Origin: a virus
Taxonomy: Duplodnaviria > Heunggongvirae > Uroviricota > Caudoviricetes
DNA: 6,360 nt
IMG/VR virus record: IMGVR_UViG_2778261419_000001
Location: 1 to 6,360 of that record
Strand: one strand, 5' to 3'
Below are positions 1-6,360 of this stretch, in pieces (the stretch's first letter is position 1; each line of letters opens with the position of its first letter). The notes under the pieces were generated by a model. That model worked only from the letters and a program-made list of their open reading frames with translations, was not told the DNA's origin and searched no databases. Position numbers and translations under genes: made by a program.

Positions 1-195
1 CGCTTACCGCTCATGGGCACCTCTCTTTAAGCCATCTTAAATGACTCTGAGGTGTCTGTTAAACCCGTGGCGATTCAGTTATTGGTATCTCATTACGCAC
101 CATTGCTAAGAAAAGAAAATGCTCTGATGGCACAATTAGGAAGGAGTTGCAAACTGCAGTAGGATTTATAAACGGTGTAATGTCAGTATTTAAAT

Positions 196-215
196 AAGCG
201 CCAATTAAGGCGCTT
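196..215 (-). terminator. Stem-loop overlapping the stop codon of the 187-aa gene; possible intrinsic terminator
   Basis: Perfect inverted repeat AAGCGCC (196-202) / GGCGCTT (209-215) with 6-nt loop. On the minus-strand transcript the stop codon lies in the loop and the stem is followed by AUUUAAAU, which is U-rich but interrupted. Confidence 0.35.
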
Positions 216-768
216 TAAATGGAACGGGAACCTGTAAAGCGTTAGCAGCTATCTCAACTATTTTCTCGTTTGGAATATTTGCTAATATAAAGCGTTCCCT
301 TTCTTGTAAAATTTTGTTTATAACGTAATACACGCTTAACATGCTGAACAACATTGATTCTTCCTTTGCTTTGCAAGAATAGTTATCCACTTTCCAGTTT
401 TCAGACACATAGTCATATTTTGATTTAATTTGCTTTGATAGTAATAGAACATTTTTTAATGCTATTCGAGTGTCTCGATTGTAGTAAGAGTAAATATTAT
501 CTATGTTCTTCTCTAGAATAATTGGTTCAAACGTTTTCCCTAAAGAAATATACTGAAAATCTTTGGGTTTAAATGTGTGTTCTTTTATGCTTTTGCTAGT
601 GGTTTTGATAGATTTCTCTAGTATTGATAATTCATCCTCTAACTCAGTGAATATGCTTTTTTTTAATGTTTTTATCTTTTCTTTTTCCTTTCTAGACTCA
701 ACGTATGGCGCTAGTATAATACCCAAAAGAAAAGTGGTAAAAGGAATTAAGCTTTTGATAATGTCCAT
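205..768 (-). CDS. Hypothetical membrane-anchored protein, 187 aa: one N-terminal transmembrane helix followed by a Lys/Glu-rich soluble domain; cargo (moron) gene
   Basis: Intact ORF with ATG at 768-766 preceded by AAGGA 4 nt upstream. Residues about 5-23 (IKSLIPFTTFLLGIILAPYV) are hydrophobic, then KEKEKIK and a charged domain. Hand-sampled GC is about 30%, against about 55% in the terminase genes. No family recognised. Confidence 0.6.
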   Translation of the reverse strand: MDIIKSLIPFTTFLLGIILAPYVESRKEKEKIKTLKKSIFTELEDELSILEKSIKTTSKSIKEHTFKPKDFQYISLGKTFEPIILEKNIDNIYSYYNRDTRIALKNVLLLSKQIKSKYDYVSENWKVDNYSCKAKEESMLFSMLSVYYVINKILQERERFILANIPNEKIVEIAANALQVPVPFKAP

Positions 769-807
769 GGTTTCCTTATTTTTTCATATGATTAACGCTA
801 GGAAAAT

Positions 808-836
808 ATGATAATAAAAAACTAACGCGTACGCAA
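808..836 (-). promoter_or_regulatory. Candidate sigma70 promoter for the 187-aa gene
   Basis: On the minus strand: -35 TTGCGT (+ coordinates 836-831), 17-nt spacer, -10 TATCAT (813-808), about 35 nt upstream of the RBS. Found by eye only. Confidence 0.3.
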
Positions 837-913
837 AAATTATTGTATCGTGTTAAGAGTGGTTACTTTGTCACGTGGCTTAAGCCCGCCGTCGAGCGGG
901 TTTCGTCGTTTGA

Positions 914-922
914 GGGGGGGGG
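914..922 (+). repeat. Homopolymeric G9 tract (C9 on the minus strand) immediately 5' of an ATG
   Basis: Directly visible: GAGGGGGGGGG followed by ATG at 923. The tract doubles as the Shine-Dalgarno region and spacer for the 66-aa ORF. Confidence 0.9.
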
Positions 923-1123
923 ATGAATCAGACTGGTCAACCCAGCTATGCGCTTTTCGCCGGGAATGATAGTAGCAATCTCAAAACGTTTGTTCTTGAG
1001 GTTGATTGCTACCGTACTGAAGACGCGCTATTAGCAATGGAGAAAGCCATAAGCGAATTAAAAATCTGTCAGCGTCAGTTCGGCTATGGAAATGATTCTG
1101 GTGTCAGAGCTATTATTCGATAA
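923..1123 (+). CDS. Small hypothetical protein, 66 aa; 3' end overlaps the convergent 182-aa gene by 11 nt
   Basis: ATG at 923 directly follows a GAGG plus G-run that could serve as SD. Amino-acid composition is not low-complexity. No family recognised. It could be spurious. Confidence 0.3.
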   Translation: MNQTGQPSYALFAGNDSSNLKTFVLEVDCYRTEDALLAMEKAISELKICQRQFGYGNDSGVRAIIR

Positions 1124-1661
1124 TTCTTTCACCAATAATAACTGGCAATGGAATGAGCACTTCCCAGAATGGTTGATACCCTTCGTAAATCTGTGTTGTT
1201 TCACCCTTCCAGTAAAGATCCAGCCTCTGAGATACTTCTACTGGGGAGCAGTTCAGATTTAACAAATTCATATCACCTCTATGATAGTTCGACGATGAGC
1301 TGACTTGAAATATTGGGGTGTCAAGTGGGGATTTTGAAAAGCCTCTGAACCAGGCGGTTTCTTTTACAGACTCACATGCAAAAATTGATTGGAAGCGCGA
1401 TGGTTTTTCAGGGAAGTGTGATTTCCTTCGTTCTTCCAGTAGTATTTCTATTATTGCTCCAAATCGTTCGTCTGAGCTGACGAGGTTTATGTGGTAGTTG
1501 AAAAAAAGATTATTTGCATGCCGGGATACACCGTCGGAAAACAATGAGCTCGTATGAGCCTGAAGTGGAACGATTGGGCAGTACGGTTCTGCTAATTCAA
1601 TTTTCATGCCTGACTTCAGTGTGCGCTGCCTGTCAAGTGTATAAAAAAGATTGTTCGCCAT
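1113..1661 (-). CDS. Hypothetical protein, 182 aa; cargo gene between the Q region and the late promoter/lysis genes
   Basis: Intact ORF with ATG at 1661-1659. GAAGGA lies about 10 nt upstream, which is rather long spacing. Hand-sampled GC about 40-47%. No transmembrane segment and no motif I can assign with confidence. Confidence 0.5.
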   Translation of the reverse strand: MANNLFYTLDRQRTLKSGMKIELAEPYCPIVPLQAHTSSLFSDGVSRHANNLFFNYHINLVSSDERFGAIIEILLEERRKSHFPEKPSRFQSIFACESVKETAWFRGFSKSPLDTPIFQVSSSSNYHRGDMNLLNLNCSPVEVSQRLDLYWKGETTQIYEGYQPFWEVLIPLPVIIGERIIE

Positions 1662-1861
1662 ATTAATGCGTTCCTTCTGATATTGGTTATTTCTGTTGAT
1701 TTAACGATATCAGAATAGATAAGTATAGTGAATACAATGCCGTAAAAGCGGCAGCACGGCTTCCGTATCTGATAGCTTGGCTGGATGAAATGGCGTCGCA
1801 GCGCTCATAGTGGCAACGATTAGCGGACCTCGGCATTTGCCTGTTTTTATATTTAAGGCCG

Positions 1862-1893
1862 CTGACATCTGGAATTGTCGGGGATTTTTTATT
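1862..1893 (+). terminator. tR'-like intrinsic terminator (end of a 6S-like late leader) just upstream of the pinholin gene
   Basis: Stem CTGACA (1862-1867) / TGTCGG (1876-1881) with one G-U pair, then GGA TTTTTT ATT (T-run 1885-1890). The GTCGGGGATTTTTTAT arrangement resembles the lambda tR' end as I recall it. The Q-dependent promoter and qut site should lie in 1662-1861 but I could not pin down hexamers. Confidence 0.4.
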
Positions 1894-1928
1894 CTCTCAA
1901 TTTGCACCCGCATCTGCGAGGTGGAGTT

Positions 1929-2144
1929 ATGAAATCCATGGATAAGTTAACAACGGGTGTCGCCTATGGCACCTCAGCAGGTAGTGCCGGTTACTGGTTT
2001 TTACAGCTGCTCGATAAAGTCACGCCCTCACAGTGGGCAGCAATAGGTGTGCTGGGTAGCCTGGTATTTGGCCTGCTGACGTACCTGACAAACCTTTATT
2101 TCAAGATTAAAGAAGATAAGCGCAAGGCTGCGAGAGGTGAATAA
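1929..2144 (+). CDS. essD: Pinholin, phage 21 S21-type, 71 aa, with dual start M1/M4 (antiholin/holin)
   Basis: Translation [71 protein letters not shown] matches the S21/EssD pinholin as I recall it. GAGG lies 7 nt upstream of ATG 1929; a second ATG sits at 1938. Stop overlaps the next start (TAATG). The ORF-track start at 1875 is probably not used. Confidence 0.9.
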
Positions 2145-2641
2145 TGCCTCCATCATTACGAAAAGCAGTTGCTGCTGCTATTGGTGGCGGAGCAATTGCT
2201 ATAGCATCAGTGTTAATCACTGGCCCAAGTGGTGACGATGGCCTGGAAGGTGTCAGCTACATACCATACAAAGATATCGTTGGCGTATGGACTGTATGTC
2301 ACGGACACACCGGAAAAGACATCATGCTCGGTAAAACGTATACCGAAGCAGAATGCAAAGCCCTCCTGAATAAAGACCTTGCCACGGTTGCCAGACAAAT
2401 TAACCCGTACATCAAAGTCGATATACCGGAAACAACGCGCGGCGCTCTTTACTCGTTCGTCTACAACGTGGGTGCTGGCAATTTCAGAACATCGACGCTT
2501 CTTCGCAAAATAAACCAGGGCGATATCAAAGGCGCATGTGACCAGCTACGTCGCTGGATATACGCTGGCGGTAAGCAATGGAAAGGCCTGATGACTCGTC
2601 GTGAGATTGAGCGTGAAGTCTGTTTGTGGGGGCAGCAATGA
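2144..2641 (+). CDS. rrrD: SAR endolysin (T4-lysozyme-fold muramidase, phage 21 R21 / RrrD-like), 165 aa
   Basis: N-terminal Gly/Ala-rich weakly hydrophobic SAR segment ([20 protein letters not shown]). Catalytic spacing E-x8-D-x5-T in [16 protein letters not shown]. Near-identical to RrrD as recalled. RBS GAGG upstream; translationally coupled to the pinholin. Confidence 0.9.
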
Positions 2642-3081
2642 GCAGAGTAACCGCGATTATCTCCGCTCTGATTATCTGCATCATCGTCTGCCTGTTATGG
2701 GCTGTTAATCATTACCGTGATAACGCCATCGCCTACAAAGAGCAGCGCGACAAAGCCGCATCCACTATCGCTGATATGCAGAAGCGTCAACGTGATGTAG
2801 CAGAACTCGACGCCAGATACACAAAGGAGCTTGCTGATGCTAACGCGATTATCGAAAGTCTTCGTGCTGATGTTTCTGCTGGGCGTAAGTGGCTGCGCGT
2901 CAAAGCTGTCTGTCCAGACATGCATAAAATCACCGCCGCCTCCGGCGTGGATGATGGCACCAGCCCCAGACTTACTGACACCGCTCAACGGGATTATTTC
3001 ACCCTTAGAAAGCGGATTGAAACCAGTGATAAAATGATCCGAGGCTTGCAGCAATACATTCGCACGCAGTGTGTAAGATGA
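2638..3081 (+). CDS. rz: Rz inner-membrane spanin (i-spanin), 147 aa
   Basis: ATG 2638 overlaps the endolysin stop (ATGA). N-terminal TM helix ([19 protein letters not shown]), then a charged coiled-coil-like periplasmic domain. Ends resemble lambda Rz. The ORF-track start at 2626 is GTG; ATG 2638 is preferred. Confidence 0.85.
2837..3037 (+). CDS. rz1: Rz1 outer-membrane lipoprotein spanin (o-spanin), embedded in the +1 frame of Rz, about 66 aa
   Basis: AAGGAG (2824-2829) lies 7 nt before ATG 2837. Signal peptide with lipobox LLGVSGC, then a Pro-rich region ([14 protein letters not shown]...TPLNGIISP) matching lambda Rz1. The ORF-track start at 2831 is TTG. Confidence 0.8.
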
Positions 3082-3461
3082 GCAATCTTTGCTAATTAGC
3101 CATGAAATAGATAAATATCAGGCCAACGATGATTAGTGCCAGGCATCCTAATTGGTCAGAATGGCTGGCATTTGATCGTCTTGCTCTTCTTGCAGTTGAT
3201 TGGACAGCCCTCTGTCCTCGACTTCCTCTTGGCATTCCTCTCATTTATTCTCTCTCAACATTGATATTGAACTGACAGATGATAATTATTTCATGAAAGT
3301 GGTATCTCGTTGATTTGATTACGCTACATAGTCGCCGGATTTTCGCATTTATCGGCATCGGGCGGTGCAAAATTGGCATAATCGAAACGTAGAGTTTTTG
3401 GCTGACAACAGCATTAGCGGTCACCCGGAGAGTGTTGTGAACATGTTAATTACATGACGCT

Positions 3462-3782
3462 TTAGATGCATCGACATTTGATGATGCTTGTCAGACCTGT
3501 CATTTTCTTTGCTTCATTTTCAACATTGAGGAAGTTGGTTGAGCATATTTTTTGATAATCTCCAGTTGTGAATCCTGTTTTATCGATCTTGCGTTTCAAG
3601 GGATTAATCGTTTTGCAAGATGCTCTATGGATTCTGGTAAAGCGTTCGTCAGATTTATTACCTTTACCTCTGGTTCGCTTCAATGCATTGACAACATATC
3701 CGTCTGGATTATCGCCAAGCCAATTACGATAGTCTGATTCACTCTCAGTCTGAAGGTCACTTCTGAATACCTTTATGGACAT
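3462..3782 (-). CDS. Hypothetical protein, about 106 aa, basic, with a C-x22-C-x24-C-x-C pattern; cargo gene at the bor-equivalent position upstream of cos
   Basis: Intact minus-strand ORF. The second in-frame ATG (3782-3780) has AGGAG 7 nt upstream, so it is preferred over the track start at 3800. About 40% GC. No family recognised. Confidence 0.5.
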   Translation of the reverse strand: MSIKVFRSDLQTESESDYRNWLGDNPDGYVVNALKRTRGKGNKSDERFTRIHRASCKTINPLKRKIDKTGFTTGDYQKICSTNFLNVENEAKKMTGLTSIIKCRCI

Positions 3783-3901
3783 GAAGATACTCCTGTGCAT
3801 TTATGGTACGAAGAAATAGCAAAAGTATTTTTACCGTAAATTGCGAATCTACAAAAGCAAAACAATGCGTAATATCAGAGTGAATATTCTGCCTTTAATG
3901 T

Positions 3902-4096
3902 GGGTCCTTCTGATGACCTGAGCTCTCACGGGGCGGAAGGCGCGCGGGTTTTCGCTATTTATGACAATTTTCCGGTTTAAGGCGTTTCCGTTCTTCTTCG
4001 CCGTAACCTAATGTTTTTATTTAAAACACCCCCTGAAAAGAAAGGAAACGACAGGTGCTGAAAACGGGCTTTTTGGCCTCTGTCGTTTCCTTTCTC
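3902..4096. other. cos DNA-packaging site: cosQ-like GGGTCCT (3902-3908), cosN (12-mer 3931-3942), cosB with R3 (3983-4000), I1 A/T-rich putative IHF region (about 4005-4031), R2 (4035-4054, inverted) and R1 (4080-4096)
   Basis: Collinear with the lambda left end as recalled: CGCGGGTTTTCGCTATTTATGA follows the 12-mer; R3 CGTTTCCGTTCTTCTTCG; R2/R1 form an inverted repeat GAAAGGAAACGACAG / CTGTCGTTTCCTTTC; sits immediately upstream of Nu1. Confidence 0.8.
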
Positions 4097-4119
4097 TGTT
4101 TTTGTCCGTGGAATGAACA

Positions 4120-4665
4120 ATGGAAGTCAACAAAAAGCAGCTGGCTGACATTTTCGGTGCGAGTATCCGTACCATTCAGAACTGGCAGGAACAGGGAATG
4201 CCCGTTCTGCGAGGCGGTGGCAAGGGTAATGAGGTGCTTTATGACTCTGCCGCCGTTATAAGATGGTATGCCGAAAGGGATGCTGAAATTGAGAACGAAA
4301 AGCTGCGCCGGGAAGTTGAAGAACTGCGGCAGGCCAGCGAGACAGATCTCCAGCCAGGGACTATTGAGTACGAACGCCATCGACTTACGCGTGCGCAGGC
4401 CGACGCACAGGAGCTGAAAAATGCCAGAGACTCCGCTGAAGTGGTGGAAACCGCATTCTGTACTTTCGTGCTGTCGCGGATCGCAGGTGAAATTGCCAGT
4501 ATTCTCGACGGGATCCCCCTGTCGGTGCAGCGGCGTTTTCCGGAACTGGAAAACCGACATGTTGATTTCCTGAAACGGGATATCATCAAAGCCATGAACA
4601 AAGCAGCCGCGCTGGATGAACTGATACCGGGGTTGCTGAGTGAATATATCGAACAGTCAGGTTAA
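4120..4665 (+). CDS. nu1: Terminase small subunit (lambda gpNu1 homolog), 181 aa
   Basis: Translation MEVNKKQLADIFGASIRTIQNWQEQGMPVLRGGGKGNEVLYDSAAV... is essentially lambda Nu1 (winged-HTH N-terminus that binds the cosB R elements). It overlaps the A start by 26 nt, as in lambda. Confidence 0.92.
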   Translation: MEVNKKQLADIFGASIRTIQNWQEQGMPVLRGGGKGNEVLYDSAAVIRWYAERDAEIENEKLRREVEELRQASETDLQPGTIEYERHRLTRAQADAQELKNARDSAEVVETAFCTFVLSRIAGEIASILDGIPLSVQRRFPELENRHVDFLKRDIIKAMNKAAALDELIPGLLSEYIEQSG

Positions 4666-6322
4666 CAGGCTGCGGCATTTTGTCCGCGCCGGGCTTCGCT
4701 CACTGTTCAGGCCGGAGCCACAGACCGCCGTTGAATGGGCGGATGCCAATTACTATCTCCCAAAAGAATCCGCATACCAGGAAGGGCGCTGGGAAACACT
4801 GCCCTTTCAGCGGGCCATCATGAATGCGATGGGCAGCGACTACATCCGTGAGGTGAATGTGGTGAAGTCTGCCCGTGTCGGTTATTCCAAAATGCTGCTG
4901 GGTGTTTATGCCTACTTTATAGAGCATAAGCAGCGCAACACCCTTATCTGGTTGCCGACGGATGGTGATGCCGAGAACTTTATGAAAACCCACGTTGAGC
5001 CGACCATCCGCGATATTCCGTCGCTGCTGGCGCTGGCTCCGTGGTATGGCAAAAAGCACCGGGATAACACGCTCACCATGAAGCGTTTTTCCAATGGTCG
5101 TGGCTTCTGGTGCCTGGGCGGTAAAGCGGCAAAAAACTACCGTGAAAAGTCGGTGGATGTGGCGGGTTATGATGAACTTGCTGCCTTTGATGAGGATATT
5201 GAACAGGAAGGCTCTCCGACGTTCCTTGGCGACAAACGTATTGAAGGCTCGGTCTGGCCAAAGTCCATCCGTGGCTCCACGCCAAAAGTGAGAGGCACCT
5301 GCCAGATTGAGCGTGCAGCCAGTGAATCCCCGCATTTTATGCGTTTTCATGTTGCCTGCCCGCACTGCGGGGAGGAGCAGTATCTTAAATTTGGCGACAA
5401 AGAGACGCCGTTTGGCCTCAAATGGACGCCGGATGACCCCTCCAGCGTGTTTTATCTCTGCGAGCATAATGCCTGCGTCATCCGCCAGCAGGAGCTGGAC
5501 TTTACTGATGCCCGTTATATCTGCGAAAAGACCGGGATCTGGACCCGTGATGGCATTCTCTGGTTTTCGTCATCCGGTGAAGAGATTGAGCCGCCGGACA
5601 GTGTGACCTTTCACATCTGGACGGCGTACAGCCCGTTCACCACCTGGGTGCAGATTGTCAAAGACTGGATGAAAACAAAAGGGGATACGGGAAAACGTAA
5701 AACCTTCGTGAACACCACGCTCGGTGAGACGTGGGAAGCGAAAATCGGCGAACGTCCGGATGCTGAAGTGATGGCAGAGCGGAAAGAGCATTATTCAGCG
5801 CCCGTTCCTGACCGTGTGGCTTACCTGACCGCCGGTATCGACTCCCAGCTGGACCGCTACGAAATGCGCGTATGGGGATGGGGGCCGGGTGAGGAAAGCT
5901 GGCTGATTGACCGGCAGATTATTATGGGCCGCCACGACGATGAACAGACGCTGCTGCGTGTGGATGAGGCCATCAATAAAACCTATACCCGCCGGAATGG
6001 TGCAGAAATGTCGATATCCCGTATCTGCTGGGATACTGGCGGGATTGACCCGACCATTGTGTATGAACGCTCGAAAAAACATGGGCTGTTCCGGGTGATC
6101 CCCATTAAAGGGGCATCCGTCTACGGAAAGCCGGTGGCCAGCATGCCACGTAAGCGAAACAAAAACGGGGTTTACCTTACCGAAATCGGTACGGATACCG
6201 CGAAAGAGCAGATTTATAACCGCTTCACACTGACGCCGGAAGGGGATGAACCGCTTCCCGGTGCCGTTCACTTCCCGAATAACCCGGATATCCAACAGCG
6301 TATGGAAATATCATTCACCTGA
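4640..6322 (+). CDS. A: Terminase large subunit (lambda gpA homolog), 560-aa ORF; lambda-like to about residue 551, then a divergent 9-codon tail and stop; probably a C-terminally truncated pseudogene
   Basis: GTG start at 4640. N-terminal 550 aa match lambda gpA (641 aa) as recalled. From about nt 6294 the sequence departs (PNNPDIQQRMEISFT-stop here, versus PNNPDIFDLTEAQQ... in lambda), with in-frame TGA at 6320-6322. Confidence 0.8.
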   Translation: MNISNSQVNRLRHFVRAGLRSLFRPEPQTAVEWADANYYLPKESAYQEGRWETLPFQRAIMNAMGSDYIREVNVVKSARVGYSKMLLGVYAYFIEHKQRNTLIWLPTDGDAENFMKTHVEPTIRDIPSLLALAPWYGKKHRDNTLTMKRFSNGRGFWCLGGKAAKNYREKSVDVAGYDELAAFDEDIEQEGSPTFLGDKRIEGSVWPKSIRGSTPKVRGTCQIERAASESPHFMRFHVACPHCGEEQYLKFGDKETPFGLKWTPDDPSSVFYLCEHNACVIRQQELDFTDARYICEKTGIWTRDGILWFSSSGEEIEPPDSVTFHIWTAYSPFTTWVQIVKDWMKTKGDTGKRKTFVNTTLGETWEAKIGERPDAEVMAERKEHYSAPVPDRVAYLTAGIDSQLDRYEMRVWGWGPGEESWLIDRQIIMGRHDDEQTLLRVDEAINKTYTRRNGAEMSISRICWDTGGIDPTIVYERSKKHGLFRVIPIKGASVYGKPVASMPRKRNKNGVYLTEIGTDTAKEQIYNRFTLTPEGDEPLPGAVHFPNNPDIQQRMEISFT

Positions 6323-6360
6323 AAGGGATGACAGCCGTTGGCGAAGGTGAGTTACTCATC

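Follow-up and report, generated by a model that had tools for sequence, protein, structure and literature searches.

Organisation of the locus

The stretch of DNA analysed here (positions 1 to 6,360 of IMG/VR virus record IMGVR_UViG_2778261419_000001, a member of the Caudoviricetes; hereafter the window) is an entire 6,360-bp draft contig, NOSD01000093.1 of assembly GCA_002521925.1. From left to right it carries three open reading frames (ORFs), a P21-type holin, lysozyme and Rz, a minus-strand ORF, cos, the gene Nu1 and A', a truncated gene for the lambda-type terminase large subunit gpA. Close to the right end of the window A' gives way to DNA of the side tail-fibre gene stf, and this A'/stf' junction is the subject of the present analysis. 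The features that define it are as follows.

4640-6322, plus strand: A', truncated terminase large subunit, with 551 gpA codons, nine foreign codons and a stop (BLASTP, Pfam)
4640-6291, plus strand: A-derived DNA of the A' ORF, corresponding to lambda 711-2362
6285-6291, plus strand: junction microhomology CGGATAT, present in both parents, with the crossover somewhere inside it (comparison with intact A and native stf)
6292-6360, plus strand: stf-only DNA, from Pro731 of the 1,023-aa reference Stf, read out of frame by A' (DNA identity)
6293-6319, plus strand, with TGA at 6320-6322: out-of-frame tail QQRMEISFT and stop (ORF translation)
6328-6360, plus strand: beginning of an stf-frame ORF, with ATG at 6328, 5 nt past the A' stop, and AAGGG before it (gene calls in two longer contigs, L005 and L006)

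The truncated terminase gene

The A' ORF starts with GTG and encodes 560 amino acids. Its residues 1-551 aligned without gaps to lambda A (641 aa) by BLASTP, with 549 of 551 identical (99.6%) up to ...HFPNNPDI and no alignment beyond, so that 90 codons (residues 552-641) are missing; a previous interpretation made from the letters alone (the sequence-only reading) had correctly proposed both the collinearity up to this point and a loss of about 90 codons. At the DNA level, window 3943-6291 corresponds to lambda 13-2362 with 98.3% identity (blastn), and megablast matches to intact A, in 98 phage records and several thousand Escherichia coli records, all stop at window 6291. The switch had been put at about nt 6294, which was nearly right in location and 2-3 nt off in the exact end of the A match.

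The Pfam domain GpA_ATPase is complete (profile 3-237 of 247, E = 1e-50), as it is in intact lambda gpA, whereas GpA_nuclease is cut: the match covers profile 2-237 of 294 and ends at residue 549, with positions 238-294 missing. Compared with lambda-type gpA as a family (PF05876 and PF20454), A' thus has the ATPase domain, but neither a complete nuclease domain nor the full length, residues 552-641 of the intact protein being absent. The portal-binding region of gpA lies at its extreme C-terminus. A' lacks both the end of the nuclease domain and this C-terminal portal-binding end. Portal binding by gpA was reported by Yeo and Feiss (1995), as cited in a passage of PMC2366019. For annotation purposes, A' is a pseudogene and the ORF downstream of it a tail-fibre fragment.

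The junction and its fusion partner

The DNA that follows the breakpoint is tail-fibre coding sequence. Positions 6285-6360 are 100% identical to native stf, and 6288-6360 were found at 100% identity within annotated tail-fibre genes of more than 1,000 E. coli records; they also match the stfQ remnant of the K-12 prophage Qin. The match begins at codon 730 of the intact reference gene (L002 1815-4886, 1,023 codons). At the junction intact A reads aacCCGGATATttttgat in strain KL53 (L001) and in lambda (longer stretch ...aataaccCGGATATttttgatctg), native stf reads acaaCGGATATccaacag (L002 and L003; longer stretch ...tataacaaCGGATATccaacagcg) and the window reads ...aataaccCGGATATccaacagcg. The CGGATAT copy in A lies at lambda 2356-2362, in codons 549-551, and a second matching block, ATAAC, is found just upstream of CGGATAT after a 1-nt gap. 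By our estimate (about 8 x 4^-7), a perfect microhomology of 7 bp is expected at some 5 in 10,000 random junctions and, because such an overlap is so rare at random, we regard the join as microhomology-mediated.

The last gpA residue, Ile551 (ATC, 6290-6292), is retained only through a synonymous third-base change from T in A to C in stf. Codons of A are read from 6287 and those of stf from 6289, and it is because of this two-base offset that A' ends in a short nonsense tail; both the tail QQRMEISFT and the TGA at 6320 had been read correctly before. We found neither a promoter nor a terminator at the junction. Coupled translation of the tail-fibre C-terminal fragment after the A' stop is conceivable from the spacing of the two reading frames.

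The sequence-only reading had asked for a search of the terminal segment for an insertion sequence (IS) end or for tail-gene homology. The latter was found, in the form of stf, while no IS end is present in 6292-6360; IS-mediated truncation was rejected, as the DNA past the breakpoint is stf coding sequence that runs on as stf and tfa in L005 and L006. A simple frameshift was also rejected: the expected continuation of A, ttttgatctgacc..., is absent from the window, L005 and L006, and no full-length A was found in another frame.

Sister contigs and rarity of the junction

Two longer contigs, L005 and L006, were found by look-up of the exact 560-aa protein (read sets ERR11815625 and SRR32114334). 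Both carry the identical junction, followed by the stf C-terminal ORF and then tfa, with no head or tail genes, in line with the earlier proposal that a deletion or rearrangement boundary extends beyond the window. Projected on lambda, they contain positions 1-2362 and then directly the stf C-terminal region, equivalent to lambda ~21,044; lambda 2363-21044 is absent. The stf-frame ORF has 265 codons in both (L005 3888-4685 and L006 2293-3090), with tfa next to it, and its product contains the Pfam domains Collar and Phage_fiber and matches the tail-fibre family phrog_295 (profile 576-794 of 794, E = 3e-141). Residues 2-46 of the L005 product (TAVGEGELLIGWSGTSGAHAP...) have counterparts inside several tail-fibre PHROG families that are otherwise unlike one another; these matches indicate a conserved linker immediately past the recurrent breakpoints described below, and possibly a natural module boundary.

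The window, L005 and L006 differ by 15-24 substitutions, and those within A' are all synonymous. Upstream of cos their contexts differ: L005 carries the Qin-type cargo genes gnsB and ydfO and the window a lysis cassette, with shared homology starting at window 3928. Because the contigs differ in synonymous single-nucleotide polymorphisms (SNPs) and in upstream context, the junction represents three separate genomes and no assembly error. It is therefore old enough to be found on recombined backgrounds.

The junction is rare. No window-type junction was present in 5,426 complete E. coli genomes (0/5,426), the exact 38-mer across it had no match in GTDB representative genomes, and the short A' form was seen in three contigs only in a large collection.

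A probable large deletion in a lambda-type prophage

We interpret the feature as a scar left by the loss of a large segment from a lambda-type prophage, with a probability of about 0.9. Illegitimate recombination without long homology would have joined two copies of CGGATAT, one in A and the other in stf (at about codon 730 of 1023), and removed the material between them, ~19 kb in lambda coordinates. The loss would have included the last 90 codons of A, the genes W, B, C, Nu3, D, E, FI, FII, Z, U, V, G, T, H, M, L, K, I, J and lom, as well as 2.2 kb of stf from its 5' end. With the join out of frame, A' would have come to end after nine foreign codons. What is left, cos, Nu1, A', stf' and tfa, would no longer allow heads and tails to be made and would constitute a cryptic-prophage remnant of the Qin/DLP12 kind. 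The layout of a defective lambdoid prophage is present in L005 and L006, where Nu1-A' is followed by stf'-tfa, while the window itself shows the first 69 nt of stf. The suggestion of the sequence-only reading that the prophage is packaging-defective is true but understated the damage: beyond the cut in the nuclease domain, the portal, capsid, tail and most tail-fibre genes are gone, and with them the whole virion pathway.

The recombination pathway was presumably replication slippage, template switching or microhomology-mediated break joining, the deletion probably arose in a single step, and the stf C-terminal ORF may be expressed. Junctions of this type in many other E. coli prophages, in which A', Nu1, J' or FII' is joined to stf', support a deletion scar; the A'/stf' junction is a new allele within an already familiar series of prophage-decay deletions. 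Some observations weigh on the other side. Only 69 nt of the window lie past the junction, and the downstream structure comes from sister contigs with a different sequence upstream of cos. The recombination pathway itself is unreadable from sequence. Moreover, the same stf nucleotide forms the right end of a J'/stf' junction in KL53 and of an FII'/stf' junction in W137, and a one-off, random microhomology event may therefore be an incomplete story.

Two other origins of the feature have very little probability. One is that the assembly produced a chimera where a short draft contig runs out: the window makes up all 6,360 bp of its contig, and the contig end lies exactly 76 nt past the first base in common with native stf, as is typical of a repeat-induced break in the assembly graph; this end may mark a graph branch caused by a second stf copy in the genome. 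A 7-bp overlap is, however, far below the word length of any assembler, and two independent read sets show the same junction inside longer contigs, each with SNPs of its own. Equally improbable is the idea that the 560-aa protein is a conserved, functional short variant of terminase, which the sequence-only reading had named as an observation that would speak against a truncation. The ORF is open, its ATPase domain is intact and the A' differences among the three contigs are all synonymous, but this form occurs neither in the 5,426 complete E. coli genomes nor in any GTDB representative genome, its nuclease domain is truncated, its C-terminal end is replaced by out-of-frame stf, and no portal or capsid gene is left for it to work with.

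Comparison with known prophage remnants

The likeness to truncated A-type pseudogenes of E. coli K-12, proposed by the sequence-only reading, holds in kind but not in detail. In the K-12 prophage Qin (nohA - stfQ' - tfaQ - pinQ) the survivors are ordered as in the window, with cos, Nu1, truncated stf and tfa; the stf allele family is the same, a short microhomology is found at the junction, and in L005 the window's own junction lies behind gnsB-ydfO. Qin of K-12 differs in that Nu1 (lambda 719) is joined directly to stf 68 bp further upstream and no A is left, whereas the window keeps 551 A codons. Upstream of cos, the window has a P21-type S/R/Rz lysis cassette and Qin has cargo genes. As for markers of the Qin locus, L005 has gnsB and ydfO upstream, the window has holin, lysozyme and Rz with the additional ORFs instead, and all contigs end short of the position of pinQ.

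The K-12 prophage DLP12 (nohD - aaaD' - 'tfaD) likewise has a truncated lambda-type A, aaaD, after an intact Nu1 homologue and fused to DNA of the tail-fibre region, and its upstream lysis genes, of the essD/rrrD/rzpD type, are 89% identical to those of the window. In aaaD, however, only ~103 A codons remain (up to lambda 1018), the fusion partner is tfa (lambda 22119) rather than stf, and the junction sequence is another. The aaaE gene of e14 (L008) showed no detectable DNA similarity to the window.

A further series is formed by deletion variants, at the Qin locus or in prophages like it, in KL53, W137, S3, NCCP12480, AF44 and isolate 12, which also have nested collinear deletions from the packaging genes to stf; KL53 and W137 share the exact stf breakpoint of the window. 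The variants differ in their left partners (J, FII, A at about codon 80, U and J), and several have two or three junctions. Their retained segments, in lambda coordinates up to stf, are given below.

KL53: 1-427, 914-2622, 17822-18143, stf
W137: 1-2268, 6542-7676, stf
S3: 1-955, stf
NCCP12480: 1-1647, 8064-8767, stf
AF44: 1-697, 17229-17833, stf

Isolate 12 (NZ_CM194533.1; L013 602-3694) also has an A-stf fusion, but there the reading frame is kept (1,030 aa) and the stf breakpoint is placed 0.7 kb further upstream. This fusion, in which A extends to lambda 2276, is annotated as a single 'terminase gpA endonuclease subunit', and its junction was also seen in metagenome contig L081. In the same isolate an IS1 lies between tfaQ and pinQ.

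Recurrent breakpoints in stf

The right ends of these deletions deserve separate consideration. For a sample unbiased by the left partner, metagenome contigs were scanned for the 35-mer just right of the window's junction, which gave 74 contigs and covers right ends in the 2.2 kb of stf left of this anchor; breaks at stf coordinates 29302 and 29425 represent allele or repeat-number variation and were excluded. At the window's stf site three left partners were found, namely A at lambda 2362 (the window), J at lambda 18143 (KL53) and FII at lambda 7676 (W137). The KL53 and W137 junctions, gcgggTAT/CCaacag and cgcgggTAT/CCaacag (a slash marks the junction here and below), involve the same stf nucleotides as that of the window.

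A second stf site, in a place equivalent to 68 bp upstream of window 6285, has the sequence GGGTA/ACCGCG (L014 30010-30019 in native stf). Its left partners number 12: Nu1 (two positions), A, Z, U, J (two positions), the lom spacer, portal, capsid, tape measure and stf. Deletions in K-12, S3, NCCP12480 and AF44 have their right end here, at ggtcgggTA/ACCGCGctgacag. The 74-contig scan added Nu1 at lambda 697, Z at lambda 8073, another J position and the lom-stf spacer and, from an HK97-type head module, the portal, protease/capsid and tape-measure genes; the internal stf position comes from the complete genome NCTC9066 (L090). Examples of this upstream site are L003 ~3935, L010 ~4278, L011 ~3007, L012 ~3003, L023, L026, L038, L039, L047, L057, L074 and L090.

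Altogether, of the 18 distinct junctions in the 2.2 kb of stf that precede the anchor, 15 fall within two intervals of at most 10 nt, with three other positions besides; under uniform placement, we estimate the probability of such clustering at <1e-20. The right-hand flanks comprise several stf haplotypes that differ within 30 nt of the junction and, since these haplotypes are different, the events look independent rather than descended from a single ancestor. For the same reason, a single ancestral right end inherited by all variants is unsupported. A reading of the recurrent right ends as boundaries of allelic mosaics was mostly rejected as well, given left partners as diverse as Nu1, A, portal, capsid, Z, U, tape-measure, J, lom and stf.

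Both sites (CGGGTAACC and CGGATATCC; motif sequences GGGTAACC and GGATATCC) fit CGGnTAnCC, a short near-palindrome that has TA at its centre, and the crossover falls on or beside this TA. The TA at the break is also present in the reference sequence of the left partner in at least 9 of the 12 upstream-site junctions. In lambda 1-23.5 kb, TAACCGCG occurs once, at 8063-8070 in gene Z, and this copy is itself a deletion right end, common to NCCP12480 (L011 ~2300) and L036; it forms the right end of an A(~1641)/Z(8065) junction and pairs with the stf TAACCGCG in contig L047. In addition, the 9-mer ATCCGTGAG opens the retained segment in two unrelated junctions, at lambda 914 of KL53 (427/914, L001 ~4945; in A) and at 17229 of AF44 (697/17229, L012 ~2400; in J).

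Several left ends also nearly coincide, at lambda 697/699/719, 955/956, 2268/2276 and 17822/17833. In XJW9B263 (L091 3655-4911) an IS3-family element interrupts an stf gene that is intact apart from it, at L014 ~30070-30073, between the two recurrent end points.

Several candidate causes of a site-specific break were looked for. A pix-type site (TTCTCCCAAACC-NN-GGTTT...) with up to three mismatches was absent from the window, L002 and L003, under settings that recovered the e14 pix sites used as control; the latter match those published (PMC12529663). Crossover by a Pin/Gin-type invertase was rejected, as no pix site is present at the breakpoint, in stf, in Qin or in the window. Comparison of 8-mers between the hot-spot region and the tfa-pin spacer gave chance-level matches only, and folding of the hot spots for hairpins was no better than that of shuffled sequence (z = -0.36). 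To our knowledge, none of cosN, type III restriction sites, Chi, DnaA boxes and IS target sites offers a likeness that fits the breakpoints.

That right ends recur is well supported as an observation, and the way in which they do so points to a hot spot directed by sequence. Possible causes are the reuse of earlier junctions in successive steps, a break or nick with a preference for the site, and a replication stall with template switching. Reuse would mean that the window's junction formed in two or more steps, an older KL53-type J'/stf' junction (gcgggTAT/CCaacag) having been followed by a second deletion from CGGATAT in A to it. KL53 indeed has A ... A'/J' ... J'/stf' and enters stf at the same position, remnants made of several segments are frequent in this family (KL53, W137, NCCP12480 and AF44), and in L005 the window-type junction has Qin-like surroundings, like those in KL53. 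However, CGGATAT of A fits native stf at 7 of 7 positions, plus the ATAAC block, and the KL53 junction (CGGGTAT) at only 6 of 7; KL53 lacks lambda 428-913, which is present in the window, and is hence no direct ancestor; and a second deletion ending exactly on the old junction would need an explanation of its own. We consider such a stepwise origin unlikely. A better, though still less than even, chance is given to the view that the stf site GGATA·TCC is a preferred place of breakage, nicking or replication stalling, from which DNA would be lost leftwards until microhomology permits rejoining; this would refine, and not replace, the deletion scar. It agrees with the three left partners at the window's stf nucleotide and the 12 at the site 68 bp upstream, which range from head genes of the lambda and HK97 types to tail genes and to stf itself, with the different right-hand stf haplotypes, with the concentration of 15 of 18 distinct junctions in two intervals of at most 10 nt, with the fit of both stf sites to CGGnTAnCC, and with the use of the sole TAACCGCG of lambda 1-23.5 kb (Z, 8063) as a deletion right end. 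Against it, no pix site, significant hairpin, IS end or Chi site was found at the breakpoints, nor any enzyme or structure that would account for them; stepwise deletions that reuse an older junction could produce part of the recurrence, FII CGCGGGTAT being a 9/9 match to the J'/stf' junction of KL53; and right ends were sampled only left of the anchor. A spread sample of complete genomes contained almost no partial matches by which the TAACCGCG of lambda Z could be judged as a recurrent right end.

Tentatively, and with slightly less assurance than the preferred place of breakage as such, we propose that the TA-centred near-palindromes GGGTA/ACCGCG and GGATA(T)/CC are sequence-directed breakpoints. 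A putative nicking or cleaving activity, or a stall, might repeatedly and independently truncate lambdoid prophages of different head types leftwards, always keeping the receptor-binding end of stf and tfa, along with pin where present, and the window's junction would then be one outcome of such truncation. Our literature searches returned no report of a deletion hot spot in stf, which is weak evidence of absence. Tail-fibre genes are thought to be shaped by unusual recombination, and a passage of PMC3945230 cites invertase-driven exchange. Should prophage decay in E. coli turn out to break repeatedly at these two stf positions, the domestication of lambdoid prophages would be more than purely random erosion. 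A surviving module of this kind (the stf C-terminal part, tfa and pin) was recently shown to block phage adsorption, with PinQ acting on StfE2 in e14 (PMC12529663).

Other features of the window

The remaining ORFs of the window to which the analysis assigned coordinates are listed below.

205-768 (minus strand), 923-1123 (plus strand) and 1113-1661 (minus strand): three ORFs upstream of the holin, belonging to PHROG families of unknown function, one of them also with DUF2441
3462-3800, minus strand: ORF of 112 aa (106 aa by gene call), located between Rz and cos at the place of bor in lambda
4120-4665, plus strand: intact terminase small subunit of the Nu1/NohA type, 181 aa (Pfam Phage_Nu1 1-164 of 164, E = 2e-101)

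The ORF at 3462-3800 had no Pfam or PHROG match, and the DNA of Nu1 is collinear with lambda 191-736. Window 1-1900 was not found contiguous with the rest of the window in any complete E. coli genome, the best matches starting at 1904; its ORFs are candidate cargo genes of the interval from the late promoter region to the lysis genes. At the cohesive-end position of cos (window 3931-3942) the window reads GGGCGGAAGGCG, compared with GGGCGGCGACCT in lambda and L005; on either side of this position cos is otherwise conserved. Prophages with a full-length A, for instance in enterotoxigenic E. coli (ETEC) H10407, contain window 1904-6291 at 99% identity.

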